Positions 7,785 to 50,091 of a stretch of 64,000 bases of DNA are shown piece by piece. Position numbers and translations under genes: made by a program. The stretch lies in IMG/VR virus record IMGVR_UViG_3300025528_000383; one strand, written 5' to 3'. The notes under the pieces were generated by a model, which had not been told where the DNA came from, searched no databases, and saw only the letters and a list, made by a program, of their open reading frames with translations. Source of the stretch: a virus. Each line of letters starts with the position of its first letter. The stretch's first letter is position 1.

Positions 7785-7897
7785 GCTCTCTCTCCCGATC
7801 AATGTGCCTTTGTCTCTTTCCTTTTAGATGTGCAACAACCTCTTCTTTTCAATTGTTAACGACTGTAAAACGTGGGACAAATCGACCTTTATGCTCA

Positions 7898-22476: not shown

Positions 22477-23391
22477 TCAATTCCGATAATAGAGGAGGTC
22501 GTTTTGCGACTTCAGCCCGAGGAAACGGATCACCGCCTCCTCGACTTTTTCGAAGTCAAGCGGGAGTGGAAAATCCTTGTTTCCCCAGGTTCGGGTCGGA
22601 ATATCGAAATAAACCGTCCCCCATTCCGTTCCGGTGGAAAGTCGCACATAAAGCCGACGGAACATTTCCCGTTTGTTTTTCCTCTTTTCCCAGTATTTGA
22701 CCTGTTTCACTTTCACCGGGGTGTGAGCAATCCGTGCCGGCATCGGCCCTACATCTCTCTTCCGCTCCAAGGCTTCTGGAGCTAACTTGCGGATGAATTC
22801 GATCAGACACTTGGCAGTGCCGACCGTATCGTCTGTGGCCTGGTGATGATGTTCAAACGGGATGTTGAGCAACTCGCACATGGTATCGAGCCGGTACCCG
22901 CCCCGTCCTAGGCCAGGCACGAGCTTTTTGAACAGTTTCATCGTGCAGAGCGTATCGTTGTTGGGAAAGATCCCGACCTTTTGGAAAGCAGGCAGAAGAA
23001 ATCGATTCCAGTCAAACTCGACGTTGTGCCCAACCACGACGGCGTCGCCAATGAAGCGGTAGAAATCGGGAAGTATCTGGTAGATGGTCGGCTGATTCGC
23101 CACATCCTCATTGGAAATCCCGGTGAGGTTTGCGATCTTTGCCGGAATCTTGAGCTGCGGGTTTACCAGGGTGGAGAACGTGTCGCCGATACGTCCGTTC
23201 AGAACACGGACGGCTGCGATTTGGATGATTCGTCCCCCTTTTTGAGGAGAATAGCCCGTTGTCTCGATATCGAGGACGACGAAATGCGGGCGTTTCAACA
23301 GCTCCAATTCTCCATCAAGGTTATCGCTCTGCCACCGGATATCTTCGACCGGTTTCACCGATTCTGGCATCTTGGGTTCTCCCCCTTTCAT
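22477..23391 (-). CDS. dnaQ: DnaQ/PolC-type DEDDh 3'-5' exonuclease
   Basis: LDIETTG, HNVEFD, HHQATDDT. Confidence 0.88.
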   Translation of the reverse strand: MKGGEPKMPESVKPVEDIRWQSDNLDGELELLKRPHFVVLDIETTGYSPQKGGRIIQIAAVRVLNGRIGDTFSTLVNPQLKIPAKIANLTGISNEDVANQPTIYQILPDFYRFIGDAVVVGHNVEFDWNRFLLPAFQKVGIFPNNDTLCTMKLFKKLVPGLGRGGYRLDTMCELLNIPFEHHHQATDDTVGTAKCLIEFIRKLAPEALERKRDVGPMPARIAHTPVKVKQVKYWEKRKNKREMFRRLYVRLSTGTEWGTVYFDIPTRTWGNKDFPLPLDFEKVEEAVIRFLGLKSQNDLLYYRN

Positions 23392-26495: not shown

Positions 26496-27521
26496 TCATT
26501 CCCCCTTAAAAGGACTTCCTTTGGTGATTTGGGTGATGGTTTTGGTTCCCCGTTGATAATGGATGGTATAAAGGTAAATGCCGGTTTCGTCGGCAACGGT
26601 GAGTTCATAGAGAGTTGTGGCGTTCAGGTTGGTGTCGTCGTAGAGGTAGCCGGTGATGGCCCAATGGTTGAATGTCCCCCGGCCATGGGTGAGAAGTGAA
26701 AACAAGGCGGATTGATTTTCCTCTTTGAGCCCCAGACGCCTCGTGAGGGCTTTGATGTCATGATCACCGGCCTTGATCTTTCCAGAGGCAATGCGGTTGT
26801 AAAGTGCCGGATCAGCAAGAGACGCTCTCATCCTTTCCCAGGCCAAGGCGAAATCCTGATGGGTGGAACTTTCGAGAAAACTGTTTTTGGTAAGAGGGGT
26901 TCTTGTGTGGGGGAGATCTTCGGGTTTTTGAATCCGGATGGCGGAGACGGGATGTCCGGTTTCATCCAACCGGAGCTGAAGGGTCTGAATGTGAAATTTT
27001 TTGGTATCGTTGACTCCGTTCACATCCACAACGGCGTATTTCGTCCGTTTCCCTTTCTGGTCGATCCGGACGCCGTACTGGCGGAGTGTGATGGAGTCGA
27101 TCCATTGATATTGGGTTTTGGCAAAGTCCTGTATCGTTTCGGTAAGACCGTCTCTTCCCGAGCCGTAATCCAAGCTCAAAATTTCGCTACCCAATACCTG
27201 AAAAATTGACTTTTTTCCTGAGGCGATGTCAAGGTAATCGTTATGGTCGCTCAATGCTCGCCCCATAATCGCCACTTTTTCCGAAAGAGATCGGAGGCCT
27301 TTGATGTCAACTCCTTCTCTATTCATATTCATTCCCGTAACCTTGACGATCGGTTTTTCTTTTACCGGGGTTCCCTCATGGCGAAACCATTGATACGGAA
27401 TCTTAATAGCCGCTATTTTATCCGCAAACGTTTCGTGTGTTTTATCCAGGCCGCATCCACTGAGCAACATGGCGGCGGCACACAAAGCAACAGCCGCTCT
27501 CCGGTTTCGCATCATACCCAT
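26496..27521 (-). CDS. Putative lipoprotein
   Basis: Signal peptide with lipobox LLSGC. Confidence 0.65.
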   Translation of the reverse strand: MGMMRNRRAAVALCAAAMLLSGCGLDKTHETFADKIAAIKIPYQWFRHEGTPVKEKPIVKVTGMNMNREGVDIKGLRSLSEKVAIMGRALSDHNDYLDIASGKKSIFQVLGSEILSLDYGSGRDGLTETIQDFAKTQYQWIDSITLRQYGVRIDQKGKRTKYAVVDVNGVNDTKKFHIQTLQLRLDETGHPVSAIRIQKPEDLPHTRTPLTKNSFLESSTHQDFALAWERMRASLADPALYNRIASGKIKAGDHDIKALTRRLGLKEENQSALFSLLTHGRGTFNHWAITGYLYDDTNLNATTLYELTVADETGIYLYTIHYQRGTKTITQITKGSPFKGE

Positions 27522-35570: not shown

Positions 35571-36152
35571 TCATTTCAACTGATAGAAGTAGAATAGGTT
35601 CCCGTCCATGTCCACTTCCATGACGCCATGAAAATATAACGACATGACAGGCAGATGTTCTGCTGGCATGTACAACAAGGCATGCTGGAAATCTCGGCTC
35701 AAAGCCTCGCAATGTTCATGAAGTGTCTTTTCCCCATGATCAAAGTAGCAGCCCCAGGTCAAGCATAACACGGAAACCGCCAAATCCCCTTTGTTAATTT
35801 GGAGTGGGCAGGGATATTTTCCGACGATATACCGGAAACGATCCCGGTTCCAAAATTCAAGGTCGTCGGACATTTCCACCCCGACATAATCGACTCCAGC
35901 CTGAAGAAAAATTTCGCTCTGGTGTCCATAAGCACACCCAATGTCGATAATCCTCCGAATGTCATGGGCGAGGCAAAACTCCGCTATTTTCTCATATATT
36001 TTGAAACTGTGACTGAGTAGATGGAAAATACAATCCTCTTCCATCAGGTACTGAGTGTCGCCGGATTCGCCATACAACACGTCCAACTCCTTCAGCCGTT
36101 CATTTAGCCGACTGTAATCGAAAGTCGGAAAGGATCGGGTTTCCCGTTCCAT
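35571..36152 (-). CDS. SAM-dependent methyltransferase-like protein
   Basis: IIDIGCAYG motif I, VGVE motif II. Confidence 0.55.
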   Translation of the reverse strand: MERETRSFPTFDYSRLNERLKELDVLYGESGDTQYLMEEDCIFHLLSHSFKIYEKIAEFCLAHDIRRIIDIGCAYGHQSEIFLQAGVDYVGVEMSDDLEFWNRDRFRYIVGKYPCPLQINKGDLAVSVLCLTWGCYFDHGEKTLHEHCEALSRDFQHALLYMPAEHLPVMSLYFHGVMEVDMDGNLFYFYQLK

Positions 36153-36541
36153 CCAGTTCCTACCCTTTAGTCGCACCAACTCTTTTTTCAACACTCGCTC
36201 CAACATCTCTTTCACACTCCTGTTTGAAATACAGGTTGTCCGTCCCTTCTTAACCGATTTTTTCAATCGCCGGACGCCCAGCTTGAAACACGCTGTCATG
36301 TTTCAAAGGGATTGAATGATGGTACAAAATCAAGCACATCCTCCTTTCTGAACCTATGGCCTTTCCAGGCAATTCCTTGGTTCTATCAGTCCTTTTATCT
36401 TACAAAACCCCCTTTGCTTTCATAACCTGAACTAAAGACCGTTTCCGAGTTGTTTATTCGACCATCTGAACTTTTTTTTATTAATTAAAAAAACGTCTTT
36501 GGTTTCGCAAAAAGAAAACCCCGGAATTTTCCGGGGCGGGT

Positions 36542-39500
36542 TCAGTAGATAACCCTCACGTTTTCTTTTCCGAGGAGATGCTGAAGCCGGTCGATGGTTT
36601 CGCCGTTGTGGTACCCCTTTAGCTCCCGTCCTCGACGAGTCTTGTATTCTTTTCCGTGGTATACGAACCGGATCGGGATCGTATTTTGGAAACCGTTCTT
36701 CTTCACGTCCGCCAGAATTTCTTCGATTTCGTCCAATTCCCTTTGTGCTTGGACAGAGTTGTCAGACAGTACGAGCTGGATGGCTTCCGGTTCGGTGACG
36801 GCAGTTAATGACTCGACCGTTCCAATGGATTCGGTCTTAAATTGCAACCCCCGGTCGCTGTAAGATACCGTGCCGATGAAGTAGAGCACAGCTCCTTCCT
36901 TTAGGAGATCACTGTACTGGTGGTAGGTTTGTGGGAAAATGACCGCACGGATCGATCCGGTTTCATCCTCGATTTCGTAATTTGCCATCCGTTCACCCTT
37001 CTTGGTGACAAACGGCTCGATTTCCTGAGCGACCCCGACGAGCGTGGCTTTGAATTCTCGTTCCTTACGCTCTGTTTCCTCTCCTTCTTCCTCTTCCATT
37101 TCGTCCTCTAGGGCAAGGAATTGGTGAATTTTGTGGAAATCTTTGATGTGCAGACTGGAGAGGAACGGGAGGTATTGGTCAATTGGGTGTCCTGTCACGT
37201 AGAACCCGGTATATTCTTTTTCTTTCATAAGTCGGGTATGCACATCAAGCTCCCCGGCCTCCTCCGGCATGGTCAATACTTTCATGACGGGCTGAAAGGC
37301 TTTCGCAGCAAAGAGCGGGACCACTCTTTCCTTTTTCGCCTCCTTAATGGTCGAGGCAATACCAAGAAGTCGGTCCAGTTGGGAGAGTTTTTCTTTCCGT
37401 GTTCCAGGGAACCCATCCAAGGAACCGGAATAAATCAAGGCTTCTATCATCCGCTTGTCGATGCGTTGGTACAACGCCATTCGTTGAATGAAGTCGAATA
37501 AGTCCCGGAACTTACCTCTTACTTTCCGCTCCTCGATGATGAATTCCCCGGATTTTCCCATGTTTCTGAGACCGGAGAATCCGAAGCGGATCGCCCCATC
37601 CTGTACGTTAAAATTCGTCTCGGAGGCGTTCACGTCCGGCGGAAGGACAGAAATGCCCCGCTCCTTGCAGACGCCGATGAACTGTTTGATTCTGTCAGAT
37701 TTCGTCTTGTACGAGTTGAGGATTTCGCAGAGCATCTCCGTCGGGTAATGGCAAGCAAGGTACCCGCTCATGGCAGAGATGGCCGAATATCCAACGGCAT
37801 GACTTTTGTTGAAGGCGTATTCAGCAAACTTTTCCATGCGGTTCCAGATATCCTCGGCAAGATCAAGCGGAACGCCCATCTTCTGACATCCCTTGATGCC
37901 AAGATCATCTGAACCGTACAGGAAGTAGTCCTTGTACTGTTCAATGATTTCCTTCTTCTTCTTGCCCATCGCCTTGCGGATCGTGTCGCTTTGCCCCCGG
38001 CTGAATCCGGCGAGTTCCCGAACGATAAACATGACCTGTTCTTGGTAGACAATAACGTTGTAGGTCGGCTTCAAGATCCGCTCAAGCTCGGGTAGATCGT
38101 AGACAATGTTGTTCGGGTCGAGCATGTTTTTCAGATAGTTGGGGATTTCCGCCATCGGTCCCGGCCGGTAGAGGGAAATACCTGCCACGAGACGTTCGAA
38201 ACATTCCTCCGCACTCTTCGGGTCGTCCGGATCCATCCGGTCGATGTCCTGAAAGAGCTGTTTCATGAGGTCGGTCATCCCCGCCGATTCGAGTTGAAAT
38301 ACCCCGGCTGTATTGCCGTCCCGAATGAATCGGTATACGTCGAGGTCCTTTTTGGCCACCTCCGACAGGCTGTTGATGTCGAGCGGTTCTAACCCTTCCG
38401 CCAACCGTTTTTGGTTCGCTCGGGCGAGGACACGGTCAATGACGCCCATCATGCGGAGGCCCAAAAAGTCCATTTTGAGAAGCCCCATCTCTTCACATTC
38501 CACCATGTCAAACTGCGTGACGGTTTCCCGCTCTTTCGTTTCATTGTTGACGGCTGTTGCCTGTGGAATGAAGTCGGTCACGGGACCTGGAGCGATAATG
38601 TAACCGCAGGCGTGAATGGACGTGTTTCTCGGCAGCCCTTCCAGTTTCATCCCCATATCAACGACTTTCTTCACGTCAGGATCCGATTCGTACATCTGGC
38701 GAAATCCAATGTCATGAGCGATCAAGTTTTTGAGGGAGATATCGAGGCTTTTTCCGTCCACTTCCAATTTCTCTGGAATCATTTTGGCGATTTTGTCCCC
38801 GAAGGAAGACGGATATCCCATCACCCTTGCCATGTCCCTCACGACGAGTTTTGCCCCCATCGTGCCGAAGGTGATGATCCCAGAGACAGAATCCTTGCCA
38901 TACAGATCCCGGACATATTCCAGTACCTCTTCCCGGCGAGTATCCGGGAAGTCCATGTCGATGTCCGGCATGGAAATCCTATCCGGATTCAAAAAACGTT
39001 CAAAAAGAAGTCCGTAGGGGATTGGATCGATGTTCGTGATGTTCAGGCAGTAAGCGACAAGCGATCCGCAGGCTGAACCCCGTCCCGGCCCTACCGCCAA
39101 TGGTGCCGGATCGTAACCTTTCTTTTTGATGAAGGTTTTCCACCTTTCAGCGGTCTTTTCATCCACTTGGTCATAAGCCCGCTTCGCATAACCGACATAA
39201 TCGGCCACGATCAGGAAATAACCCGGGAATTTCATCTTTTCAATGGTCTCAATTTCGAATTCCAGACGCTCCCGGTATTCTGGGTCATTGTATTGTGGTT
39301 TTCCTTTGAAACGGTGCTCGAATCCCTTATGCACCAAAAAGCGGAAGTATTCGCTCTGGTCTTTGAAACCTTCCGGCACGGGGAACACAGGCATGTGATG
39401 TTGCCCCATCTTGATTTCACATTGAATGCGTTCCGCCAATTCAAGGGTGTTGTCAAGGAGCTCGGGAAGATCGTGAAAGAGAGTTTCCATCTCATCTGAA

Positions 39501-40648
39501 GAGTGGATGTGATACCCCGTGCCCGGGAACGTCCAGTGGTTCGGATCGGTCAACTTTGATTTCCTACCGATGCACAAGCTCGCTTCATGAGCGTTGGCGT
39601 CTTCCTTATTGGTGTAATGGCTATCCGCCGTTGCTACAACCTTGAGTCCATATTGCCTCCCCAATTGGAGAATTTCTGGATTCAACATCTTTTCTTCAAG
39701 GAGATTGTGGCGTTGAATTTCAAGGTAGACGTTTTCTTTCCCGAAAATTTCTATCAAGCGACGAATGACGTTTTCGGCGATATCCTTCCGTCTATTCAAG
39801 ATGGCACGGGGAAGTTCTCCTGCTAAGCAGGCGGTCAGAACGACGACCCCCTCATGGTATTTCTCCAGATCCTCCCAATCGATCTGCGGGCGACCTTTTG
39901 TGTATTTCTGTTGGCCGATGGAAACGAGTTTGAAGAGATTTTTCAAACCGGTTTCGTTCAATGCCAGAAGCACAAGATGGTTATGAGCATCAGCTTTCTT
40001 AATCAAGAGGCTCTGTCCACCTGGGACCTCAACCTCTTCAGGTTTTTTAAGGGCCGCGGCGAACCCTTCTTCCTTTGTTGGGAATCCTTTCAGACGGATG
40101 TGCGGATTTGCTTCCAAAAGCCGTTCCACCGGGACGTGGTTCCGTTTTGCGATGAGGTGCAGCGTGTCCCCGTCTTTCGTCTGATAGAAATAATCAAGAC
40201 TCGATGTATAGGCTTCGAATCCCAAGATCGGCTTTTTCCCGTATTTTTTCATGGCTTTATAAAACTTTAAGGCCCCAAACATATTCCCGTGGTCGGTCAA
40301 AGCAAAGGCGAGCTCCGCTTTCCTGGCGATATCCTCCATTCGGGAAATGCCATCCAGGAGAGAATAGCAGCTATGTCCATGAAGCGGGATGTATTTTACA
40401 ATGTTTAAAATTCCCGTTTCGTAGTCGTAAATGGCCGGATATTCTGTCCGCTTTGTCCGGAAGATCTTTTCTGTCTCTTCCCGACCAAGGGTCTTCACCA
40501 AGTTTCCCTTCCAGTCATAGACTAAGGTATGCTCACCTTTCCGTTCTACAAGAAAGAGACGCTCCCGGAACAGTTCATCCGCCGGCCGTTCCTTTCCGTT
40601 TCCATTCATTTTTTCCTGTTTCAACGGCAAATCAAGAGCGAGTTCCAT
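36542..40648 (-). CDS. dnaE: DNA polymerase III alpha subunit (DnaE) with a LysM insertion in the PHP domain
   Basis: HGHSCYSLLDG, TDHG, GRGS, MPDIDMD, YAFNKSH, C-terminal OB fold; insert YQTKDGDTLHLIA...LLEANP...GQSLLI. Confidence 0.95.
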   Translation of the reverse strand: MELALDLPLKQEKMNGNGKERPADELFRERLFLVERKGEHTLVYDWKGNLVKTLGREETEKIFRTKRTEYPAIYDYETGILNIVKYIPLHGHSCYSLLDGISRMEDIARKAELAFALTDHGNMFGALKFYKAMKKYGKKPILGFEAYTSSLDYFYQTKDGDTLHLIAKRNHVPVERLLEANPHIRLKGFPTKEEGFAAALKKPEEVEVPGGQSLLIKKADAHNHLVLLALNETGLKNLFKLVSIGQQKYTKGRPQIDWEDLEKYHEGVVVLTACLAGELPRAILNRRKDIAENVIRRLIEIFGKENVYLEIQRHNLLEEKMLNPEILQLGRQYGLKVVATADSHYTNKEDANAHEASLCIGRKSKLTDPNHWTFPGTGYHIHSSDEMETLFHDLPELLDNTLELAERIQCEIKMGQHHMPVFPVPEGFKDQSEYFRFLVHKGFEHRFKGKPQYNDPEYRERLEFEIETIEKMKFPGYFLIVADYVGYAKRAYDQVDEKTAERWKTFIKKKGYDPAPLAVGPGRGSACGSLVAYCLNITNIDPIPYGLLFERFLNPDRISMPDIDMDFPDTRREEVLEYVRDLYGKDSVSGIITFGTMGAKLVVRDMARVMGYPSSFGDKIAKMIPEKLEVDGKSLDISLKNLIAHDIGFRQMYESDPDVKKVVDMGMKLEGLPRNTSIHACGYIIAPGPVTDFIPQATAVNNETKERETVTQFDMVECEEMGLLKMDFLGLRMMGVIDRVLARANQKRLAEGLEPLDINSLSEVAKKDLDVYRFIRDGNTAGVFQLESAGMTDLMKQLFQDIDRMDPDDPKSAEECFERLVAGISLYRPGPMAEIPNYLKNMLDPNNIVYDLPELERILKPTYNVIVYQEQVMFIVRELAGFSRGQSDTIRKAMGKKKKEIIEQYKDYFLYGSDDLGIKGCQKMGVPLDLAEDIWNRMEKFAEYAFNKSHAVGYSAISAMSGYLACHYPTEMLCEILNSYKTKSDRIKQFIGVCKERGISVLPPDVNASETNFNVQDGAIRFGFSGLRNMGKSGEFIIEERKVRGKFRDLFDFIQRMALYQRIDKRMIEALIYSGSLDGFPGTRKEKLSQLDRLLGIASTIKEAKKERVVPLFAAKAFQPVMKVLTMPEEAGELDVHTRLMKEKEYTGFYVTGHPIDQYLPFLSSLHIKDFHKIHQFLALEDEMEEEEGEETERKEREFKATLVGVAQEIEPFVTKKGERMANYEIEDETGSIRAVIFPQTYHQYSDLLKEGAVLYFIGTVSYSDRGLQFKTESIGTVESLTAVTEPEAIQLVLSDNSVQAQRELDEIEEILADVKKNGFQNTIPIRFVYHGKEYKTRRGRELKGYHNGETIDRLQHLLGKENVRVIY

Positions 40649-40686
40649 ACGTTTCCCTTCTTTCTCCTCCATGCTTTCTATTTCTA

Positions 40687-40715
40687 TTGTATTTTTACAA
40701 TTTCCTATAGTCAAC
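40687..40715 (-). promoter_or_regulatory. dnaE promoter TTGACT-17-TACAAT; operator copy 40700-40715
   Basis: Read directly. Confidence 0.75.
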
Positions 40716-40750
40716 AGAAAAAAGGAGCCGTCTCAGAGACGACTCCTTTA

Positions 40751-42919
40751 TTACTTTATTTCTTGTTCTAAAACTTTGACGAGATGAGCTGGGATATTTT
40801 CCGGCTCAGTCATGATGATTCCATGCTGATACATCTCTCGGTACGATGTACGTGTTTTTTCTAAATGCTCTTTTGAGCCGAAGCAGATTGCGATGACGAT
40901 AACGCCCTGTTTACGGGCGTCCCGCACCGCATTCTTCACACTCGTGATGGCATCTTTCTCATCGATATAACTCGAAGGAAGCCCATCCGATAGTACGAAG
41001 AGAATTTTCTTCGACTCCGGCCGTTTCAAGAGCTCTTTGGTGGCGATGCGGATGGAGATGCTGTCCGCATTACAAGAGCCATAACGCCATTCCGCCGACC
41101 AGGAACGATTTACGGATTCCGTGTCCCCAAAGTCGGAAATGACTTCGTGTCGGACCAGATCCGGCGGAAAACCGGAGGGGACGAAATCATCATCAAACAG
41201 GACAATCCGAAAAGGTACCAGTCCACGCAACCCCTCTTCAAGGATGGCACAGGCTTCTCTGGCATAGTCCTTTTTAGTCTTTCCATCTTTCACATATTCA
41301 GTCATGGAACCGCTATTATCCACCAAAACCTCGACGACATAGGTGGAATCCTGCGGGTTTCCACGTTTGACAAACACATCGTACTCCTTAACCCCTACCC
41401 TCCAGAGGGCATTGGAGTCAAGGCGGCCACGCCTGCGATTCCGGGCAGTGTAGCCCTGCTTGTCCAGAAGAATTTGTTTCAGTCTCCTGGACAGCTTCTT
41501 ACCCGGGTGAAGGATATGATCCGGCACAGGACTTGGTTGGATGTCCGCATGGGTCAGTTCAAACTCAAAAAACCCACGACCTTTCAGAGCATCCTGGAGT
41601 TCTCGTTTGGTCAGGTCGCCGGATTCCGCTTTTTTGCGGGCTTTTTCCCGTTGAATACGGAGCTCCTCGTTTTTGATCTGTTGCATGTCATTTTCCAGAT
41701 CATCCAACAGATCATTTTGGGCGTTTTGGAGGAATTCATTGACCAGTTTCTCTTCTTCTTTTGCCCATTGCTCCGATTCGTCGGTCAGGTCGTTCGAATC
41801 ATTTTGATCCGAATCTTCCGCTTCCCCGGCTTGACCGTCTTGGGAAGCGTCATCCGGTTTACTGGATTTCCCGCTTTGATCCTTTTGGTTTTCTCCGTTC
41901 GGGTTTGGGATGGGATTTCCCTTCACCGATTGCGGTTTCCCGACGGATTGCGGGCTATTTTGGTCGTCCGCATCCGAAACGCCTTGTGGTTGTTCCGGGA
42001 CGAAGTGAGTGGATACTTCTCCGACATATGAAACTGAATCCTGCTTGGATTTTTTCCCGCCACCCTGTGTCGAGAAGTTAGGCGTGTCGGGAAGAGCACT
42101 CATCGCTCCCGTGTCTTGCATCAGAAGCTCGACGACGAGGGGAACAATGCGTTCATAAATTTCAAACGTCACATCCGCACAGCCCTGGGGCGTCGGTTCA
42201 TTGATGGCCCGGATGATCAGCGGACGAATCTCGTCCAGCTTCCGGTCCATTTCCGTGCCTCCATAGACATCGCCCCACTTATGGGATTTAAGACCCGTGA
42301 CGCACATGGTGGTCACTGCAAACAAAAATTCCATAAGCGGATTCTGTCCATTTACCGGTTGGTTTTGCCAGATGAGGGCATTCATGAATTGAACATGTTT
42401 CAGATAGCCCCTCATCCGGGTCACCAATCGTTTTTCAATTCGACCATCCTCGGTGCTGTTCAACAAGTGGGCACCGAGTTTGATTCCGCACTGATACGTG
42501 TTCACCGGCAGAATCTTGCCGGGATGGAGCTGATAGACCCGTTTTTGAAAATCTTCGGCAACCTGCTCCTGGAACTTCTTAAAAATCTCAAAATCGCTTG
42601 ACCGAACATGTTCAGTTTCATGACCGGTCAAGGCTTTCAGAACCGAGAAGACCATTTCGTGAGGCATTCCCCACACGTATCGGGGGACACCCACCGTGAT
42701 GGATTTACTGTCTGTGAAAGACCCCGAATCCATCAAAAGGCGGAACTTCACCTTCGGGTGTCCAGCCGGAAGCAAGTGGATGATCGTCCGATACAAGATA
42801 TTGTACACAGACTGTCTCGCGATGAACCGGCGTGTGTCATCATATCGTTTTTTTGTATCATGATCGAGCCCGGCCATCAATAAACGAGCCCGTTCGATTT
42901 CCTCAAAAATATTTGACAT
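40751..42919 (-). CDS. VWA protein with N-terminal HExxH (HETEH) region and low-complexity linker (CobT/DUF2201-like architecture)
   Basis: MIDAS DNSGS, VLSDG; HETEH at 42608-42622. Confidence 0.8.
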   Translation of the reverse strand: MSNIFEEIERARLLMAGLDHDTKKRYDDTRRFIARQSVYNILYRTIIHLLPAGHPKVKFRLLMDSGSFTDSKSITVGVPRYVWGMPHEMVFSVLKALTGHETEHVRSSDFEIFKKFQEQVAEDFQKRVYQLHPGKILPVNTYQCGIKLGAHLLNSTEDGRIEKRLVTRMRGYLKHVQFMNALIWQNQPVNGQNPLMEFLFAVTTMCVTGLKSHKWGDVYGGTEMDRKLDEIRPLIIRAINEPTPQGCADVTFEIYERIVPLVVELLMQDTGAMSALPDTPNFSTQGGGKKSKQDSVSYVGEVSTHFVPEQPQGVSDADDQNSPQSVGKPQSVKGNPIPNPNGENQKDQSGKSSKPDDASQDGQAGEAEDSDQNDSNDLTDESEQWAKEEEKLVNEFLQNAQNDLLDDLENDMQQIKNEELRIQREKARKKAESGDLTKRELQDALKGRGFFEFELTHADIQPSPVPDHILHPGKKLSRRLKQILLDKQGYTARNRRRGRLDSNALWRVGVKEYDVFVKRGNPQDSTYVVEVLVDNSGSMTEYVKDGKTKKDYAREACAILEEGLRGLVPFRIVLFDDDFVPSGFPPDLVRHEVISDFGDTESVNRSWSAEWRYGSCNADSISIRIATKELLKRPESKKILFVLSDGLPSSYIDEKDAITSVKNAVRDARKQGVIVIAICFGSKEHLEKTRTSYREMYQHGIIMTEPENIPAHLVKVLEQEIK

Positions 42920-42982
42920 AATAAATTCCTCCTCCTTTTGAAATAAAGGAAGGGGAGAAAACTCCCGCTTCCCTGCCTCATG

Positions 42983-44680
42983 TCAACCTGCGATATCATC
43001 CACCAGCGAAGCCACCGTCGCACGGTATTCGAGGTCGTTGATCCGGTTGGCCACGTTATCGAGCAACGCCTCGTAAATACCCAGCCGATCGGCGACCTTA
43101 AGGGCGTCAATGTACCCTCTCACCGTGATGCAACGTTCGGAGATCTGACCGTCCTGATAGAGCTTCATAATGCTTTGGTAGAGTTTGTCACAAATCTCGA
43201 TATCGGACGGTTTCGCCTCCGGCACCCGATGAGCCAACATCTTGGCGATGCTCGGTACGTCCGGGAAGATTACCGGCACAAACCGGTCGTTCACGGCTTC
43301 CGGAAGTTCCTTCGTCCCCACATATCCCAGCGGGTTCATCGTGGAGATGATCCGGAATTTCGGATGAATTTCTACAAGCCCGTACCCGGGGACCTGAAGC
43401 CTCCGGCGGTCATCCAAGATGGATTGAAGGGCGAACAACGGTCCATCGTCCGCCGCGTTGATTTCATCCAGGTCGAAGAATCCACCAACTTCCATCGCTT
43501 GGATTAACGCTTCACGGTCGAACGACATCTTGGTGATCTGTCTACCTTCTTCGTCTACTTCGGATTCGAACGTTTTTGATCCGAAGAGATCGAATTTGTC
43601 CGTCTGTTCGGTCATGCAAAACTCGAATAGCGGACGTTGGTAGACCCAAGCCAAGGTTTCAATCAACGTATTCTTGCCGGTTCCCTTGCCGCCCTCGAAC
43701 CGCAGGAAAAACCCGGCGTTCAAGTAGACAATGGACTTCCGGACAACCCCGATGGCGTCGAAGAACTTCGTTTTTGGCCGTCGGATGATCCGGTGTTGGA
43801 ACTCTTCCGGAACCGGTTCATACGACTCAAAGATCTCCTTGATCAAATTTTCTTCGACGTCGCATTTACGGAGGTATTTCTCGATTTCCTCCAATCGGTC
43901 TGCCGGAACGATCCCTTTATCGATTACCGCCTTCTTCACCTCGGGTAAAGTCAGGATGACCTTGCCCGCCAACACGTCGTCGAAGGTTTCTTGGTCGATT
44001 TCACAGCGGACCGAATAAGAATTTCCGCTGGCTTCGACCGCTTCGACGATTTGTGCCGCACCTCGCTTGGCGAGGCATTCCAGATAGGCTTGGAATTTTT
44101 CCATATCGCCCGTTTCAGCTTTATGTACCAAGCCGGCTGGAACTTCCTGTCCATTTTCGGACAGGAAGGCGATGATTTTTCCGCCTTCCGCTTTCACCCA
44201 CAAAGCCGGTTTGTTTCCGGCTTGCAATTCCCGCAAGACCTTTGTTTTGGCTTTATATTCCTTGATGGAACCCCTCACATGGAGAACAAATTCCATCACG
44301 TTTCTGGTTTCTTGCGGGGGGTTGGGTAGGATGGCTTCCAGGATGAAGGCTTTCCTGGTTGATCCGTCTCGGAACGTGACCTCACCTTCATCAACCACGA
44401 CTCCGTCACAAACCATGTACCCCGAGCCATCTTTTTGGAGCCCTCTCTCCACCATTGCGTCATAGAGAGCCTCATTGTTCTTCGTGCCCTCTATAACCGT
44501 TGATCCGTACTGTTTCCCGACCACACCGAGTTGCTCGGTCATGGCCTCATCCCAAACAGAAATCACTTTGGGATCGTAGACGGCCCCTTTGCTCGTGGGG
44601 TCATGGACCAACTTCACACGCTGACCGACACTCAAACGCAAGCTGTGCCGGGCATTGAAAACAGTCACTTTCATTTTCAT
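42983..44680 (-). CDS. MoxR/CbbQ-like AAA+ ATPase with N-terminal HIRAN-like domain
   Basis: GGKGTGKN, LDEIN, TMNP..Y.GT..L..A..DRF; N-terminal GQRVKLVHDP...YDPKVISV...LGVV. Confidence 0.85.
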   Translation of the reverse strand: MKMKVTVFNARHSLRLSVGQRVKLVHDPTSKGAVYDPKVISVWDEAMTEQLGVVGKQYGSTVIEGTKNNEALYDAMVERGLQKDGSGYMVCDGVVVDEGEVTFRDGSTRKAFILEAILPNPPQETRNVMEFVLHVRGSIKEYKAKTKVLRELQAGNKPALWVKAEGGKIIAFLSENGQEVPAGLVHKAETGDMEKFQAYLECLAKRGAAQIVEAVEASGNSYSVRCEIDQETFDDVLAGKVILTLPEVKKAVIDKGIVPADRLEEIEKYLRKCDVEENLIKEIFESYEPVPEEFQHRIIRRPKTKFFDAIGVVRKSIVYLNAGFFLRFEGGKGTGKNTLIETLAWVYQRPLFEFCMTEQTDKFDLFGSKTFESEVDEEGRQITKMSFDREALIQAMEVGGFFDLDEINAADDGPLFALQSILDDRRRLQVPGYGLVEIHPKFRIISTMNPLGYVGTKELPEAVNDRFVPVIFPDVPSIAKMLAHRVPEAKPSDIEICDKLYQSIMKLYQDGQISERCITVRGYIDALKVADRLGIYEALLDNVANRINDLEYRATVASLVDDIAG

Positions 44681-44819
44681 AAAATTTAACCTCCCTTTAG
44701 AAATACATTGCCGCATACGACGGCAATTCCATTGTTATAAAACTTCCTTGTATCCTACTAACGGGGAGATATTTTTATAATCGGTGTGGAGATGGATAGG
44801 AAGGGATGAACAAATCAAA

Positions 44820-44847
44820 AAAAGGCGGGACATTTCCCGCCTTTTAC
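44820..44847 (-). terminator. Terminator after herA
   Basis: AAAAGGCGGGA-CATT-TCCCGCCTTTT. Confidence 0.7.
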
Positions 44848-44874
44848 AATTTCTTTTGATTCGATTGTCCGTCG

Positions 44875-46683
44875 TCAGGCTTCGTAGAGGATGCCGAATG
44901 GGCTTTGTTTCTTCACCACTTTTCCGCTCACAACGAGTTCGCCCAGCGTATCGGTGATGTCCTGCAAGGTGTAGGTGCCGGAAAGCACCCGGTTCGCCTC
45001 GCTGTGGAGAGCGGCGATTTTTCCCGAATGGATCGGCAGACGACCAAGAAGGAATGTCGCCAGCTCTTCCCGGTTCTTCGACACGGAGAACTGATCCAAT
45101 TCCTCAAATGGATCCTTTGTATTCGGGACCTCCGTGAATGTGGTGCGGAATCGCACCACGAAATTTTTGGAAAGGAGCGGGGAGGAGATGAAACAGGATC
45201 CGGACAACAGGTGGGGCAAGCGTTTCATTTCCTCTTCTGTAAGATTCGTCTCTCTCTGGATCATGTCCATGTCACCTTTGGAGTGAAGACGGAAGATGAT
45301 CTTCGTGTTGAGCTGAGCCATAATCGTCTCATCCAAGGCATTTGGCTTTTGTGTGACCATCACGAGAAACACCCCGTATTTACGGGCTTCCAACGCCACC
45401 GTCTTGATGACGTTGCCGACCGGGGAAAACCGGCCTTTTGGTGCGAAGTTGTGGGCTTCATCCATTACGATGAAAAACATCGGAAAGCATTCTTCTTCTT
45501 CTCCTCGTTCCCGGGCGTCCTGGTACGCCCGGCGTTTTAAGTAGAACTTCTTGATGATGTAGGAGGAAAGCATTTGAAGCCGGCGAATGTCGCCCCGGAT
45601 GACGGCGAGCTTACGGGCTTTCAACGCCCGTTCCACCCCTTCAATGTCGCCATTGAAAATGCGGGTGTTCTCCAGACTATCGAGCTTCCAGCCCAACGCC
45701 TGCAAGGTGGACGCTCCGCTTACTCGGTTGCGGTACTTAGCATACAATTCTTCTTGTTCTGGTTTGAGCGGTTCCTGTTCCCTTTTTGGCTTATCTTTTT
45801 CTTCAAAGGCGATTTTGAGATTGACGATTTTCTGACGGAGGTAAGCCAGGGTATCCCCTTGTTCGTACAATACCTCCAGGGCAGCCTTTTGTGGGTCAGT
45901 CAGAGGTCCCACAAATTCGAATAAGTGGACGAGCTCATCCAGTGTGAGTTCCACAAACCGGATACCCACGTCCTTTCCGATGTAGAAAGTTTCGTATTTC
46001 CCGCTGAAATCGGTTTTTAATGCTTCAGGAAGCCCTTTCACCGGATTACAGAACACCGATTCCTGGTGCGGGTCAAAAACAAGCCCAGGAATGGAAAACT
46101 TCATCAGCTCCTCTTCCAAGACCCGCATCCCGAATGTCTTTCCGCTTCCGGTTGTCCCGATGATTTCAAAGTGCGGGTATTCCCGAAGCCGGTGAAAGTC
46201 CAGGAAAAAAGGGACACCCCGTTGTTCCCCGGCTTGATTTCCCAGCCACAACGGAGCAACATTCTGGAGTTCATCCGGGAGCTCACTCTGCATCGGACCC
46301 GTCCCTTCGATTACCCCGAGCGTGAATCCCTTTGACGGATCGGCTTGAATGAGGATGTCCTGAATTTCCGCGAACTTCGGTTTCCGTACCCGAGAAGCTG
46401 GCATTACCGGAGTGGCAATCGGCCGCAACACATCCGCTTTTGCCAGAAACAATGGGTTGTCTGGTTTCAGCTCCATCGCACGCAGAAACTCCACCGCACA
46501 ACCGCTCGGAAGCACGCTTTCCACTGCCATCGGATAGGCGAATGTGTCCACAACTTCAACCGGCACCGGACCGTGATAGGGATCTTCGATCATCAAATAT
46601 TCATTCAACGTGAAGGGGCTTTCCTGCGTGGCCAGAATAACGGTTTTCGTCTCTGTCCGTCCCAGGACGAACATTCCGTCCAT
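44875..46683 (-). CDS. herA: HerA-family ATPase/helicase
   Basis: N-terminal HAS-barrel-like region, GTTGSGKT, MDEAH, EARKYG, TQKP. Confidence 0.85.
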   Translation of the reverse strand: MDGMFVLGRTETKTVILATQESPFTLNEYLMIEDPYHGPVPVEVVDTFAYPMAVESVLPSGCAVEFLRAMELKPDNPLFLAKADVLRPIATPVMPASRVRKPKFAEIQDILIQADPSKGFTLGVIEGTGPMQSELPDELQNVAPLWLGNQAGEQRGVPFFLDFHRLREYPHFEIIGTTGSGKTFGMRVLEEELMKFSIPGLVFDPHQESVFCNPVKGLPEALKTDFSGKYETFYIGKDVGIRFVELTLDELVHLFEFVGPLTDPQKAALEVLYEQGDTLAYLRQKIVNLKIAFEEKDKPKREQEPLKPEQEELYAKYRNRVSGASTLQALGWKLDSLENTRIFNGDIEGVERALKARKLAVIRGDIRRLQMLSSYIIKKFYLKRRAYQDARERGEEEECFPMFFIVMDEAHNFAPKGRFSPVGNVIKTVALEARKYGVFLVMVTQKPNALDETIMAQLNTKIIFRLHSKGDMDMIQRETNLTEEEMKRLPHLLSGSCFISSPLLSKNFVVRFRTTFTEVPNTKDPFEELDQFSVSKNREELATFLLGRLPIHSGKIAALHSEANRVLSGTYTLQDITDTLGELVVSGKVVKKQSPFGILYEA

Positions 46684-46716
46684 ACGACATTCTCCTTCCG
46701 TATCTCTCTTATTTCA

Positions 46717-46746
46717 AACATATCATTACATTAACCTATAGTCAAA
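46717..46746 (-). promoter_or_regulatory. herA promoter TTGACT-17-TATGTT; operator copy 46731-46746
   Basis: Read directly. Confidence 0.65.
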
Positions 46747-46782
46747 GGTAAAAGGCTCCCGCATATGGAGCCCATTCCAATA

Positions 46783-47769
46783 TCAGTCGGTATCTGTTTT
46801 TTTCTTCGTTTTGTCCGTCGGCAGTTCCAGTTCGGCAACCCGACCGAAGCCGGCGATAAACCGTTTCCAGTAGCCTTGGAGCGAAGCAACCTTCACCCCG
46901 GAGTTTTGGGCGTTGATCATCTGTCCGTTTCCGACGTAGATGCCCACATGGCTGATTCTTTTCCCGAAACTGAAGAAAACGAGGTCGCCGGGTTTCACAT
47001 CGGAAGGTTCGAGGCGTCGAGTGGCAAGATATTGTTGGGCGGCAGTGCGAGGCAGTTCAATGCCAGCCTTTTTAAAGGACCACTGAACGAGGCCCGAACA
47101 GTCGAAGCTGGACTCGGGATTCGCTCCGCCCCAATGGTATGGGTAGCCCAAGTAACGTATGGCTTCATTCAGCACGGTCAAGCGGTCGCCCAGGTTTTTG
47201 GAGAGAGCTTCCTGCTCGGCCTTCCGGATTTTCAACTTGGCATAATTCTCCTGGAGCGAGCGAGATTGACCCCGTAGGAGCTCCTCACGATTTTCCAGCC
47301 ATTTCTTCTGCTTGTTCAATCGTTCATAGTCCTTTTTCTGAGTCTCCATAAGGCTCATGTCCTCTTCCATCAGAGCGTGGATGACGAACGCCCGCTGGAA
47401 CCGTTCGTTGAGCAAGTTAGAATCCAACGGGACAGTGAGGTTGGATAAGGAATCGCTGTTGGTTTGCAGGGCATGAAGGCGGCTGTCGATCAGTTGTTGC
47501 CGATTTTTAACCCTTTCCCGGGTTTCCTTGAGTTTCTCGTCGGTTTCCCGAATCTGTTTCCGTGTTGCCTCGAATTGTCTCTTTTTCTGCTTGATTTCCG
47601 TTTCCTTTTTAACCAGCTCCTCTTTCAACTCTCGAATCCGTTGATCGACTTCCCGCTTCTGGGTAGACAGTGGGCTTTTAATATCTGAATTGTTATCTGC
47701 CATGACTTTCGTCGGAACGGCATTTAGGAAGCCGACTGAGAGAGCCAGAAGGAGCATCTGTTGTTTCAT
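46783..47769 (-). CDS. Secreted coiled-coil NlpC/P60 endopeptidase (CwlO-like; start revised)
   Basis: Signal peptide, coiled coil, FDCSGL, HVGIY. Confidence 0.88.
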   Translation of the reverse strand: MKQQMLLLALSVGFLNAVPTKVMADNNSDIKSPLSTQKREVDQRIRELKEELVKKETEIKQKKRQFEATRKQIRETDEKLKETRERVKNRQQLIDSRLHALQTNSDSLSNLTVPLDSNLLNERFQRAFVIHALMEEDMSLMETQKKDYERLNKQKKWLENREELLRGQSRSLQENYAKLKIRKAEQEALSKNLGDRLTVLNEAIRYLGYPYHWGGANPESSFDCSGLVQWSFKKAGIELPRTAAQQYLATRRLEPSDVKPGDLVFFSFGKRISHVGIYVGNGQMINAQNSGVKVASLQGYWKRFIAGFGRVAELELPTDKTKKKTDTD

Positions 47770-47902
47770 GGAATTCACTCCTTTTTTAACCCCATTTTCT
47801 CGATCTAACAGAAAACCCCTTCGAATCGCATTCGAGGGGGTCCATAAGTTTTTATTTATCTTAGACGGGAAAAAGGGGAAAATTCCAAACCGCCCGTCCG
47901 AC

Positions 47903-48427
47903 TCAGGCGGGGCCGCACCCCGTCTGATTGTAAAACGTCTCCATTTCCTCGTCGGAGAGCGGATTTTGGGCAAGGTTGACAGATTCTAAGCCTTTGAGTT
48001 GGTAAAGTATCCGAATCGAGGGGATCCGGTTATGGTAGAGGGAAACCCGGCGGACATTCGGAAAATGGAGCAGAATCTCATCCGTCTCCAACCCACAATT
48101 ACGAAGTTCCAACTCTTCTACCGAATCAAACGTGACAAAGAGGTTCGTCCAATCAATTTGCGGGTTGTCCGATAGATCCAGATATCGTAAGCGGGGAAGC
48201 ATCGCAAGCGGCGAGATGTCCGTAAACCGGTTCCCGCAGAGATGAAGAGTTTCGAGATTTCGGCAGAGTTCGATCCCGAAAAGATTCCGGATCTCCCGCT
48301 GGTTGGCGTTCAGATAACGGATTTTGGAAAGCGTTTTTTCGTCCACGTCCCGACGGATGAGACTCGAACGGTTGATGATTCTATCAAAAAGCCGATACAA
48401 GGCCACATCTGGAATGTTCGGTTTCAT
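47903..48427 (-). CDS. Cytoplasmic leucine-rich-repeat protein (internalin-type repeats)
   Basis: LETLHLCGNRFTDISPL, LRYLDLSDN, LELRNC, VSLYHN, VNLAQN. Confidence 0.8.
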   Translation of the reverse strand: MKPNIPDVALYRLFDRIINRSSLIRRDVDEKTLSKIRYLNANQREIRNLFGIELCRNLETLHLCGNRFTDISPLAMLPRLRYLDLSDNPQIDWTNLFVTFDSVEELELRNCGLETDEILLHFPNVRRVSLYHNRIPSIRILYQLKGLESVNLAQNPLSDEEMETFYNQTGCGPA

Positions 48428-48445
48428 CTATCCATTTCCCCTTCT

Positions 48446-49102
48446 TTAAACCAACCGGCGGGATTGCGTTGTGCCGGTTTCATCCTTTTCCAACTCATAG
48501 GCACAGTCGGCCAGGGCGGGAAGGTAACGTTTCTCATGGGTTACAATGATCGCCTGTTTACCGGAATAGTCGATGATTTCCTTGATGGCGTGGGCGGCTT
48601 TTTCCGCATATTCCTCGGAAACGAATTTGGTCGGTTCATCAAGAAAATACGGGGTTTTGTTGTCTCCTCCGACCAGAAATCCAGTGGCGAGGAATGTGGC
48701 AAGCGAGACCAAATCCCGGATGCCGCCTCCTTCGTCGTTCGGCGAAATGCGGTTTTCTTGCCCGTTGTATGCTGTAATAATATCGAGGTCGGCAACCGGA
48801 ACGCCCGCCCGGTGATCTAATTCGATGTCTACCCGCAGGCTGTCCCCCATGACCATCTGAAGGGCGGAGGAAGCTGTTTCAGCGAGAATCTGTTTGCCGT
48901 TTTTCCGAGCTTCGTCGGAAGCTCTCTCAAGTACTTCCTTCATGATCAGCAGGTTTTCCTGTTCCTGTTCTGTTTCGGCCAGTTCCTGCTCCTTTTCCGC
49001 TTTCTGTTTGGCATACAGATCGTAGGCCGCCCTATCCTTCGTATAGCGGGTTTTGACTCGTTCAAGTTTTCTTTCCAATTGGTCTCGTGTCATCTTCCTC
49101 AC
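48446..49102 (-). CDS. C-terminal half of an SbcC/Rad50-like ABC ATPase
   Basis: Coiled coil then EGGG signature, FLDEP Walker B, IVTHE; no Walker A. Confidence 0.75.
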   Translation of the reverse strand: MRKMTRDQLERKLERVKTRYTKDRAAYDLYAKQKAEKEQELAETEQEQENLLIMKEVLERASDEARKNGKQILAETASSALQMVMGDSLRVDIELDHRAGVPVADLDIITAYNGQENRISPNDEGGGIRDLVSLATFLATGFLVGGDNKTPYFLDEPTKFVSEEYAEKAAHAIKEIIDYSGKQAIIVTHEKRYLPALADCAYELEKDETGTTQSRRLV

Positions 49103-49515
49103 TCCTTCCTCGCTCGATTAGTGTGTCCTTTCAGCTTTTCCAAGTCGATTTCGACGACCAAAGCGGTGGTCACCATCCCGAACGGGAACACCACGTCCAT
49201 CTTACCCACCACCGTCCCGGAACAGGCTGGTCGGTCAGAGTCCAAAAGATCATACAACCGGTCGTTTGTGATCCCTTCCGGAGGAGTGTAATTCGGGTTG
49301 GCAGCCACATAACCGATAAATGTCCATTTTCCCGTCTTTTTGTGGCGGACCAACACCGACAGGGCTTTGTCGTCCACCTGGTTTTGATAATCTTTCTTGA
49401 TAAAGACCCTGGTCCCAATCGGACAAGCCTCCAGCGGCATATCACGCGAGACCACCGACACCACCACTTTGCGGGCGATATCCGTCTTGGCCGGGCTTTT
49501 AAGGGTCGCAGTCAT
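49099..49515 (-). CDS. Stand-alone HIRAN-like protein
   Basis: GTRVFIKKD..NQVDDKALSV...IGYV. Confidence 0.65.
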   Translation of the reverse strand: MTATLKSPAKTDIARKVVVSVVSRDMPLEACPIGTRVFIKKDYQNQVDDKALSVLVRHKKTGKWTFIGYVAANPNYTPPEGITNDRLYDLLDSDRPACSGTVVGKMDVVFPFGMVTTALVVEIDLEKLKGHTNRARKE

Positions 49516-49678
49516 TCCGTTTCCCCTCCATCATTGTCTTTTAGTTCCTCTCGCCATTGTTCATATTCTTTTTGTAATTCTTCATCCGCAACCTTCCAAA
49601 ATTCATGGATAAAGTGAATTTAACGCTCTTTTTAACTTTCACCTTTCCCTTGCATGAAGGGCAATCTCTCTTTAATCC

Positions 49679-49694
49679 ATTGTTTATAGTCAAT
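49679..49694 (-). promoter_or_regulatory. Operator copy ATTGTTTATAGTCAAT downstream of promoter TTTACG-17-TATAAT
   Basis: Read directly. Confidence 0.7.
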
Positions 49695-49914
49695 GTATTC
49701 TATTTTTATTATATCTCTCCATCAGTAGTCCGTAAAGAAGGGGATTCACACATTATCAAGTGTTTTTCGATTTTTCCTTTCAGTTTGACAACCTGTTAAA
49801 AATGCTGTACATTCCCCTGAAAGGGGTCTATACTTTCACTGTTTCGGCATATACTTTTGCCACTCACTAGAAATCAAAGGTGGTGAAAGTATGTGCTGCA
49901 AGGGGGATGATGAA

Positions 49915-50091
49915 ATGTCTAAGATATTGGTTCGTATCCAAGGCCGTAAAGCCACGACCTTGAATAACATCGGCCTTTCTAAAGGTGTTGCAGACAAATT
50001 GGTAACACACAAAGTCCCCATCGATGTGAAAAACGGTGTCGCCCAAATTACGCCGAATCACCCGGATTTCCGTTTTTGGACAGAGGATTGA
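49915..50091 (+). CDS. Small hypothetical protein (58 aa)
   Basis: RBS AAGGGGG. Confidence 0.5.
   Translation: MSKILVRIQGRKATTLNNIGLSKGVADKLVTHKVPIDVKNGVAQITPNHPDFRFWTED

Follow-up and report, generated by a model that had tools for sequence, protein, structure and literature searches.

The window analysed here, a stretch of 64,000 nucleotides from the IMG/VR virus record IMGVR_UViG_3300025528_000383, carries at positions 40751-44680 two minus-strand genes of the same orientation, the first coding for an AAA+ ATPase with an N-terminal HIRAN domain and the second for an adaptor in which a zincin-type domain is followed by a linker and a von Willebrand factor A (VWA) domain. Judged by sequence, structural models and analogy, this pair is read, with a probability of about 0.55, as a protein remodeller that is targeted to DNA 3′ ends, bears a tethered zinc protease and resides in the replication region of a conjugative megaplasmid of Bacillota. 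The locus had been noticed in an initial annotation made from the letters alone, where the same architecture was combined with the idea of an unfoldase or protease acting at DNA ends or stalled forks on relaxase or topoisomerase adducts or on host defence proteins. That annotation is partly supported: its description of the architecture stands, while its functional interpretation is too specific. The two of its refuting conditions that were examined, an N-terminal domain unlike HIRAN and an HETEH not kept in homologues, do not hold. The genes of the pair are as follows.

42983-44680, minus strand: HIRAN-AAA+ ATPase gene, 565 amino acids from the ATG at 44680, stop codon at 42983-42985
40751-42919, minus strand: zincin-linker-VWA adaptor gene, 722 amino acids, defined by its open reading frame, a Shine-Dalgarno sequence and 41 homologues; position 40751 is the final base of the stop codon

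The ATPase start is assigned to the ATG at 44680, preceded at a distance of 8 nucleotides by a strong Shine-Dalgarno sequence (AAAGGGAGG). A longer open reading frame from 44716 was dismissed as an artefact, since homologues and the Atlas record begin at the Met of this ATG; a Caldibacillus debilis protein 84% identical to the ATPase has the same Met start. Residue numbers of the ATPase domains given below nevertheless follow the listed frame, which opens at 44716. The adaptor begins 63 nucleotides downstream of the ATPase and has an equally strong ribosome-binding site.

The HIRAN domain and the AAA+ core of the ATPase

Positions of the ATPase domains, and of a separate HIRAN-like protein of the same window, are listed first.

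44312-44680, minus strand: HIRAN domain, residues 13-135 (structural, profile and homologue Pfam evidence)
43973-44305, minus strand: second beta-rich domain, called D2 here, residues 138-248 (model predicted local distance difference test score, pLDDT, of about 90; invariant columns)
43712-43972, minus strand: helical linker region before the AAA+ core, residues 249-335 (model secondary structure; the alignment with the CobS-like family phrog_249 begins at residue 252)
42986-43711, minus strand: AAA+ core and lid, residues 336-577, with Walker A (GKGTGKN), Walker B (DLDE), sensor 1 Asn461, Arg478 and sensor 2 Arg533
49099-49515, minus strand: stand-alone HIRAN-like protein outside the operon, paralogue of the fused domain (BLASTP, Pfam, family alignment)

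According to profiles and predicted structure, the N-terminal module of the ATPase is a HIRAN domain. The pattern G..V.L..D....YD...I.V....LG.V, on which the initial annotation had relied, is present at residues 31-67, and the AlphaFold model of the N-terminal part (pLDDT 88.8) contains three modules in the approximately 330 residues preceding the AAA+ core. Residues 1-121 of this model match solved HIRAN structures, namely 3k2y (Z 9.6, root-mean-square deviation 3.0 over 91 aligned residues), HLTF 4xzg (Z 8.0) and Rad5 6l8o (Z 6.5), the best match outside HIRAN having a Z score of 3.5; the domain profile compared with PDB likewise retrieved 3k2y (E 4.6e-5), with HLTF HIRAN chains next. Foldseek with the whole three-domain model returned noise from PDB (PCNA and 9-1-1 at a template modelling, TM, score of 0.15), but with 3k2y at rank 27, and this was cleared up by the domain-level VIA search. 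Pfam HIRAN (PF08797) matches 7 of the 23 full-length ATPase homologues, those matching being 33-38% identical to the ATPase and the best having an E value of 1e-8; in the homologue P0022, for instance, the domain occupies the N-terminus (residues 16-59) at 30.1 bits against a gathering score of 24.7.

The HIRAN domain of HLTF holds a single-stranded dinucleotide in a cavity edged by Tyr72 and Tyr93 (PMC4666394). In the profile alignment, Tyr47-Asp48 of the ATPase sits on the HLTF motif PYDKNAIKV, at HLTF Tyr93-Asp94, and Asp48 is almost invariant across the ATPase family. Asp94 reportedly has a role in reading the 3′-OH, as described with the HLTF structures of 2015; a literature search on the Asp94 mutant brought up unrelated papers only. 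The only HIRAN activity known to us is the gripping of a DNA 3′ end. By analogy, the domain fused to the ATPase may be considered as a putative binder of single-stranded DNA ends carrying 3′-OH. The likeness of the ATPase N-terminus to the stand-alone protein at 49099-49515, previously noted by eye, is confirmed by BLASTP (E 4e-4, with 29% identity in a 68-residue alignment), the own Pfam HIRAN match of that protein being weak (E 0.067). A profile of the N-terminal region collected 229 cluster representatives among 1.8 billion, with about 65 full-length proteins having the first domain, about 12 being devoid of it, and many small stand-alone HIRAN proteins.

The D2 domain holds the best-conserved residues of the N-terminal part (G149, S150, Y154 and K157), its conservation exceeding that of the HIRAN domain. 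Its structural matches are weak: Cas12 WED-like domains (Z 4-5.5), small beta-barrels and, in the Atlas, a single HIRAN cluster of small size (TM 0.65). The D2 profile found nothing meaningful in PDB. As to D2 being a second HIRAN domain, hhalign against the HIRAN profile revealed no sequence link (probability 0.7%), and the fold was left without an assignment.

The MoxR/CbbQ-type assignment of the motor made in the initial annotation is borne out by Pfam AAA_5 over residues 341-480 (64.3 bits versus a cut-off of 22), by the phage CobS-like family phrog_249 (E 2.4e-24) and by the family profile, which in PDB reached Midasin (7e-78), CbbQ (2e-19), NorQ (1.5e-13) and CobS (5e-9). K348, D417, E418, N461, R478 and R533 are invariant in the alignment with the 23 homologues, so that, as far as sequence goes, the AAA+ core is placed in the Midasin/CbbQ/NorQ/CobS clade with its motifs intact. 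To our knowledge, members of this clade remodel or strip proteins via a MIDAS (metal ion-dependent adhesion site) adaptor and are not known as unfoldases of p97 style. The analogy with p97 drawn in the initial annotation is not sustained by this placement.

The zincin-linker-VWA adaptor

42080-42919, minus strand: CobT-N-like zincin domain, residues 1-280 (model pLDDT 90.6)
42608-42622, minus strand: HETEH (HExxH) motif, residues 100-104, within model helix 87-107
42428-42460, minus strand: NSTEDGRIEKR helix, residues 154-164, with Glu157 or Glu162 as candidate third zinc ligand
41510-42079, minus strand: acidic linker with a coiled-coil-like end, residues 281-470 (190 residues)
40754-41347, minus strand: VWA domain with MIDAS, DNSGS at 41306-41320 and Asp645 (Pfam CobT_C and VWA)

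The composition of the partner protein, described in the initial annotation as an HETEH motif, a disordered linker and a MIDAS VWA, was recovered in all its parts. The HExxH motif is kept in 36 of 36 adaptor homologues covering the region, as is NSxEDGRIEKR with invariant N154, E157, D158, G159 and E162; the motif is located on the long helix 138-168 of the model, 50-58 residues after HExxH, with both glutamates 53-58 residues after His104. These features of sequence and model portray the zincin site as apparently catalytic and the adaptor as a probable protease. The linker (21% Asp+Glu, 18% hydrophobic residues) is poorly conserved and has no consensus in the alignment, though it aligns with the acidic linker of CobT. 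The MIDAS is complete, D534-x-S536-x-S538 together with D645 being invariant among homologues, and in PDB the VWA domain is closest to NorD (2.4e-9) and CobT (9.5e-9).

The exhaustive structural search with the zincin domain yielded mostly zincins at the top, i.e. selecase (Z 7.2), jannalysin (7.0), BepA (7.0), ZMPSTE24 (6.9), Wss1 (6.0) and SPRTN (5.5), with Ste24, YbeY, aminopeptidases and ArdC (Z 4.4) among further matches, and Foldseek against PDB with the same model gave no match at E≤0.001. In the searches of predicted structures the fold is that of the N-domains of CobT and NorD proteins (TM about 0.6), and viral CobT_C/VWA proteins of about 700 residues are closer (TM 0.8).

The kinship with SPRTN/Wss1 put forward in the initial annotation stood only as far as the zincin type is concerned, because minigluzincins and M48 peptidases (Z 7.2-6.9) match at least as well as Wss1 and SPRTN do. 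This bears on the interpretation of the pair as a counterpart of SPRTN/Wss1-p97, that is a replication-coupled protease for DNA-protein crosslinks which would deal with trapped topoisomerase or relaxase adducts and be located via the stalled nascent 3′ end. Such a function is a specific case of the general 3′-end remodeller. It is in keeping with the combination of a zincin domain, an AAA+ motor and a 3′-end sensor, with the presence of Wss1, SPRTN and ArdC among the structural matches, with the position in a replication module and with RadC downstream in one relative. The logic would be analogous to that of SPRTN/Wss1-p97/Cdc48, where a zincin protease and an AAA+ motor act at replication-associated DNA, but here the zincin subfamily and the AAA+ clade are different, and putative DNA binding is assigned to the motor rather than to the protease. 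Apart from being outscored, Wss1 and SPRTN are further from the adaptor fold than the CobT and NorD N-domains; no SprT-like or WLM Pfam match at E≤1 and no DNA-binding module were detected in the adaptor; and no relaxase gene is linked to the pair. Taken together, these data make a dedicated crosslink protease rather unlikely.

Place of the pair in the replication module and its possible action

36542-40714, minus strand: dnaE, directly downstream of the pair, likely start ATG at 40648 (Pfam; the 1368-residue form is letter-identical in the Atlas)

The position upstream of dnaE, pointed out in the initial annotation, is confirmed by the window itself and extends to relatives. The survey of neighbourhoods included loci of relatives down to 29% identity, 14 of which were informative, three further contigs too short for dnaE having been left out. 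In 12 of these 14 loci, from Bacilli and Clostridia, the pair is followed downstream by dnaE at a distance of 0-4 genes. Besides the window, these are the metagenomic or draft elements L001, L002/L003, L004/L005, L006 and L017 and six finished plasmids: BTB_502p of B. thuringiensis, a 301-kb plasmid of C. difficile, pSC2 of P. polymyxa, pJFP838A of C. perfringens, a 127-kb Geobacillus plasmid and a 722-kb Aneurinibacillus plasmid. A primase is found directly upstream of the pair in 7 of the 12 dnaE-positive loci, in many cases after SSB and in some after thymidine kinase, RuvC and GyrA, and in the own branch of the window its place is taken by a HerA/DUF87-type ATPase. The adaptor gene with VWA and MIDAS adjoins the ATPase gene in all loci with enough flank. 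One distant Salmonella record has an AAA ATPase, ssb and bet in the vicinity, but dnaE is absent from the surrounding 7 kb. The pair is read from these gene orders as part of a plasmid replication module. Since DnaE, primase, SSB, gyrase and RuvC are the conserved neighbours, it appears to be tied to replication rather than to relaxase adducts or host defence proteins, which the initial annotation had named as targets; the link with dnaE emerged from the survey, and a link with relaxase or conjugation genes did not.

Altogether, the following mode of action may be proposed. The ATPase would form a ring, like its relatives, with HIRAN domains placed on free 3′-OH ends of nascent or primer DNA not occupied by polymerase. 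The adaptor would dock onto this ring and its MIDAS would grip an acidic residue of a protein residing at the DNA end, after which ATP hydrolysis could pull or strip the gripped protein, as for the clients of Rea1/Midasin and CbbQO, and the linker-tethered zincin domain could cut either the client or the adaptor itself. The likeliest clients would be replisome components found at the primer terminus, namely the extended plasmid DnaE, primase or a polymerase or clamp of the host, or else a protein blocking the way there. Going further, one might imagine an AAA+-driven protease machine which is guided by 3′ ends and clears blocked or abandoned primer termini in the course of plasmid replication, removing a stalled polymerase, primase before primer hand-off or crosslinked proteins; this extension is tentative and in itself unlikely. 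Its description as a functional counterpart of SPRTN-p97 assembled from chelatase-type parts is equally speculative. If true, it would also explain the widespread "CobS/CobT" pairs that accompany DNA polymerase genes in phages and phage-plasmids.

A number of findings weigh against the pair being a remodeller of proteins at 3′ ends with a tethered protease. The ATPase itself has no Pfam HIRAN match at E≤1, so that the assignment leans on homologues and on predicted structure. The approximately 12 relatives without the HIRAN domain keep the same gene neighbourhood and, therefore, 3′-end binding is not essential to the core job of the family. For the adaptor, Z scores of at most 7.2 are in the range reachable by a common structural arrangement, and the CobT/NorD-type N-domains, although sharing the fold, are not known as proteases. 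In the window a terminator and an own promoter-like site of dnaE (TTGACT-17-TACAAT, 40686-40714) set the latter apart from the pair, co-regulation of the two thus being hypothetical. Finally, dnaE is missing from the available flanks of the locus L015 (8.6-kb contig), where RadC and SLT are located downstream, and of L019, where the variant lacks HIRAN, SSB-primase precedes the pair and PemK and RecG follow it.

The constancy of dnaE as a neighbour may alternatively mean that the pair is a maturation or activation chaperone, which assembles the plasmid DnaE, loads metal into its PHP domain or relieves its inhibition; HIRAN would then ensure co-localisation with the primer end only, and HExxH would be structural or regulatory. 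All solved relatives being single-client activases or metal inserters (CobST-CobN, NorQD-NorB, CbbQO-Rubisco) is in line with this proposal, as is the persistence of HIRAN-less relatives in the same context. The DnaEs encoded beside the pair have a conserved extension of 65-85 residues ahead of PHP, in which Phe, Arg and Ala (F..RR...A) are invariant in 7 of 7 elements aligned; in the window it spans 40391-40648 on the minus strand (residues 23-108 of the listed open reading frame) and could serve as a docking site for the pair. Looked up in the Atlas, the extension had neither a model nor matches. In the loci L001 (14345-14944) and L012 (13493-14092) the first metal-ligand motifs of the PHP domain are altered to HRHS/TDSG and HRKS/TDEG versus HGHS/TDHG, the metal site thus probably being degenerate by sequence. 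With the PHP histidines replaced and the pair kept, metal loading is hardly its general role. Invariance of HExxH and of the Glu helix in 36 homologues, suggesting catalysis, also argues against a pure chaperone, and we consider this alternative possible but on balance unlikely.

Host takeover or counter-defence represents another scenario, in which the target, removed or cleaved, would be a host protein acting on plasmid 3′ ends (a nuclease, a polymerase or an immune sensor) at entry or during replication. All carriers of the pair are mobile elements, family members differ in their N-terminal recognition module, and the stand-alone HIRAN paralogue of the element is located beside proteins resembling MADS components. 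As for defence families, at E≤0.01 PADLOC had none that matched either protein of the pair or the stand-alone HIRAN paralogue. Moreover, a stable place in the replication block is not that of variable islands, and the mean column identity of 40-51% is high and atypical of arms-race genes, all of which renders this scenario improbable.

Several observations concern the neighbouring genes as such. The HerA/DUF87-type ATPase upstream of the pair (44875-46683, minus strand) matches PADLOC mad8 (E 3e-21) and a 218-residue protein similar to the C-terminal part of Rad50 (48446-49102, minus strand) matches mad3 (E 2e-14), both families being components of the MADS defence system. The gene order consisting of a 217-residue protein, a leucine-rich repeat protein, NlpC/P60 and DUF87 is repeated in L002/L003. 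In L004 (13437-18242) and L005 (10845-15722) the polymerase domain of the DnaE beside the pair is interrupted by an intein that includes a LAGLIDADG homing endonuclease. In L015 (70-4738) a gene of 75 amino acids stands between the HIRAN-ATPase and the VWA protein, RadC being next and the SLT transglycosylase thereafter; a similar small extra gene separates ATPase and adaptor in pJFP838A of C. perfringens (L010, 9560-9925).

Related systems, transcription unit and the carrier element

Jumbo phages of group 2.2 encode a MoxR AAA+ ATPase together with a vWA co-chaperone having an N-terminal metallopeptidase domain (Iyer et al. 2021, Viruses 13:63, PMC7824862), and for this phage pair a role in virion assembly was proposed (PMC7824862). 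The present genes belong to the same type of pair, which was not recognised in the initial annotation. The phage "CobS/CobT-like" pairs, matched here through phrog_249, phrog_1576 and phrog_17276 of PHROG, share the combination of an AAA_5 ATPase with an adaptor built of a metallopeptidase-like domain, a linker and VWA, but here the ATPase additionally bears HIRAN and D2, and the pair has a fixed place before dnaE. Sequence matches with phages cover the AAA+ core or the VWA domain only, and megablast of both genes against phage genomes gave no match. Since the element is taken to be a conjugative megaplasmid without a virion, a role in virion assembly cannot apply here.

With CobS/CobT (PDB 9ujv, 9uka) the pair has in common the AAA+ core (E 5e-9), the VWA domain (E about 1e-8), the acidic linker and the fold of the N-domain (TM about 0.6), and with NorQ/NorD (PDB 9qh4-9qhg) the AAA+ core (E 1.5e-13) and VWA (E 2.4e-9). 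It differs from both in having, as far as the window shows, no third client subunit of CobN or NorB type and in the presence of HIRAN and D2. An identity as true CobS and CobT, subunits of cobaltochelatase or of "porphyrin biosynthesis", as the PHROG names (phrog_249, phrog_17276) and weak CobS and CobT_C matches would have it, is virtually untenable: CobS TIGR01650 scores 26.6 bits versus a cut-off of 558.55, the CobT N-domain (PF06213) has no match and CobT_C alone reaches 22.9 bits, within the 64-kb window dnaE and a cell-wall hydrolase are the only open reading frames of CobN size, and neither the HIRAN fusion nor the replication context fits.

The best AAA+ sequence match is Rea1/Midasin (E 7e-78 over three Midasin modules). 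In Rea1 the MIDAS grips an acidic residue of the client, which is then stripped by ATP hydrolysis. Midasin is different in being a giant eukaryotic polypeptide with six AAA modules and a pre-ribosome substrate, and it is devoid of HIRAN and protease domains. The HIRAN domains of HLTF, Rad5 and bacterial lp_0118 (PDB 4xzg, 6l8o, 3k2y) share the fold, the Tyr-Asp pair of the HLTF DNA-pocket motif being kept in the ATPase, yet in HLTF/Rad5 the domain is attached to a SWI/SNF double-strand translocase with a RING ligase driving fork reversal, and here to a protein-remodelling AAA+ motor.

In the literature on HIRAN with MoxR and on MoxR/vWA/metallopeptidase with plasmid replication, no paper was found on a HIRAN-AAA+ fusion or on a constant megaplasmid location with primase or HerA on one side and DnaE on the other. 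With the pair type already known, these two features appear to be new. In phages and plasmids, gene pairs annotated as cobS/cobT or "porphyrin biosynthesis" are frequent, and we know of no demonstrated function for them. In this respect, no clue to the target of the "CobS/CobT-like" family has so far been as informative as the HIRAN fusion, which by analogy suggests that "cobalt-chelatase-like" pairs of phages and plasmids may act on proteins at growing DNA ends. The pair also hints that plasmid-encoded replication of Pol III type has an accessory factor not recognised before. Megaplasmids carrying it include those of C. difficile, C. perfringens and B. thuringiensis, which are of medical or agricultural interest, so that knowledge of their replication is of general value.

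The limits of the transcription unit are set by the following signals.

44820-44845, minus strand: terminator-like hairpin 3′ of the herA-like gene, 11-pair stem and T run, upstream edge of the two-gene unit
40721-40749, minus strand: terminator-like hairpin directly 3′ of the adaptor stop codon, 13-pair stem and T run

Located between these predicted terminators, and between the herA-like gene and dnaE, ATPase and adaptor make up a two-gene unit of their own. A promoter scan found no sigma-70-like promoter for it in 44690-44820. A perfect inverted repeat, ATTGCCG-N7-CGGCAAT (44707-44727), is positioned just upstream of the ribosome-binding site of the ATPase and may act as an operator or, in RNA, as a hairpin; one imperfect second copy with two mismatches occurs in the window at 26577-26597, a total also reached by 1 of 100 shuffled sequences.

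A metatranscriptome library covers the whole stretch with contigs that break at 44807/44860, at the herA-side terminator, a point crossed by the DNA run. This is a weak hint that the region is transcribed with a boundary at this terminator, the evidence coming from one study and from contigs only, with DNA carry-over possible. Within 36000-50000 the contigs of this bioreactor metatranscriptome are also interrupted at 46736/46761 and 47268/47305, where the DNA run of a similar sample forms one contig throughout, and these breaks may be transcript boundaries. Many sequencing runs share less than 15% of the words of the stretch, and no conclusion on habitat was drawn.

The parent element is about 234 kb long. 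It encodes conjugation and cell-wall genes, DnaE, a DnaQ-like exonuclease, RNase H, Dam methylase, SecA, a class A penicillin-binding protein and RtcB, which fits a conjugative megaplasmid of a Caldibacillus-like thermophile. Its set of replication and repair genes is unusually complete for a plasmid; in the window it comprises an RNase H1-type protein with an N-terminal hybrid-binding domain (14246-14947), a 3′-5′ exonuclease of DnaQ/RNase T type (22477-23391), a Dam-type methyltransferase (6795-7802) and a RecJ-like DHHA1 protein (111-1145).

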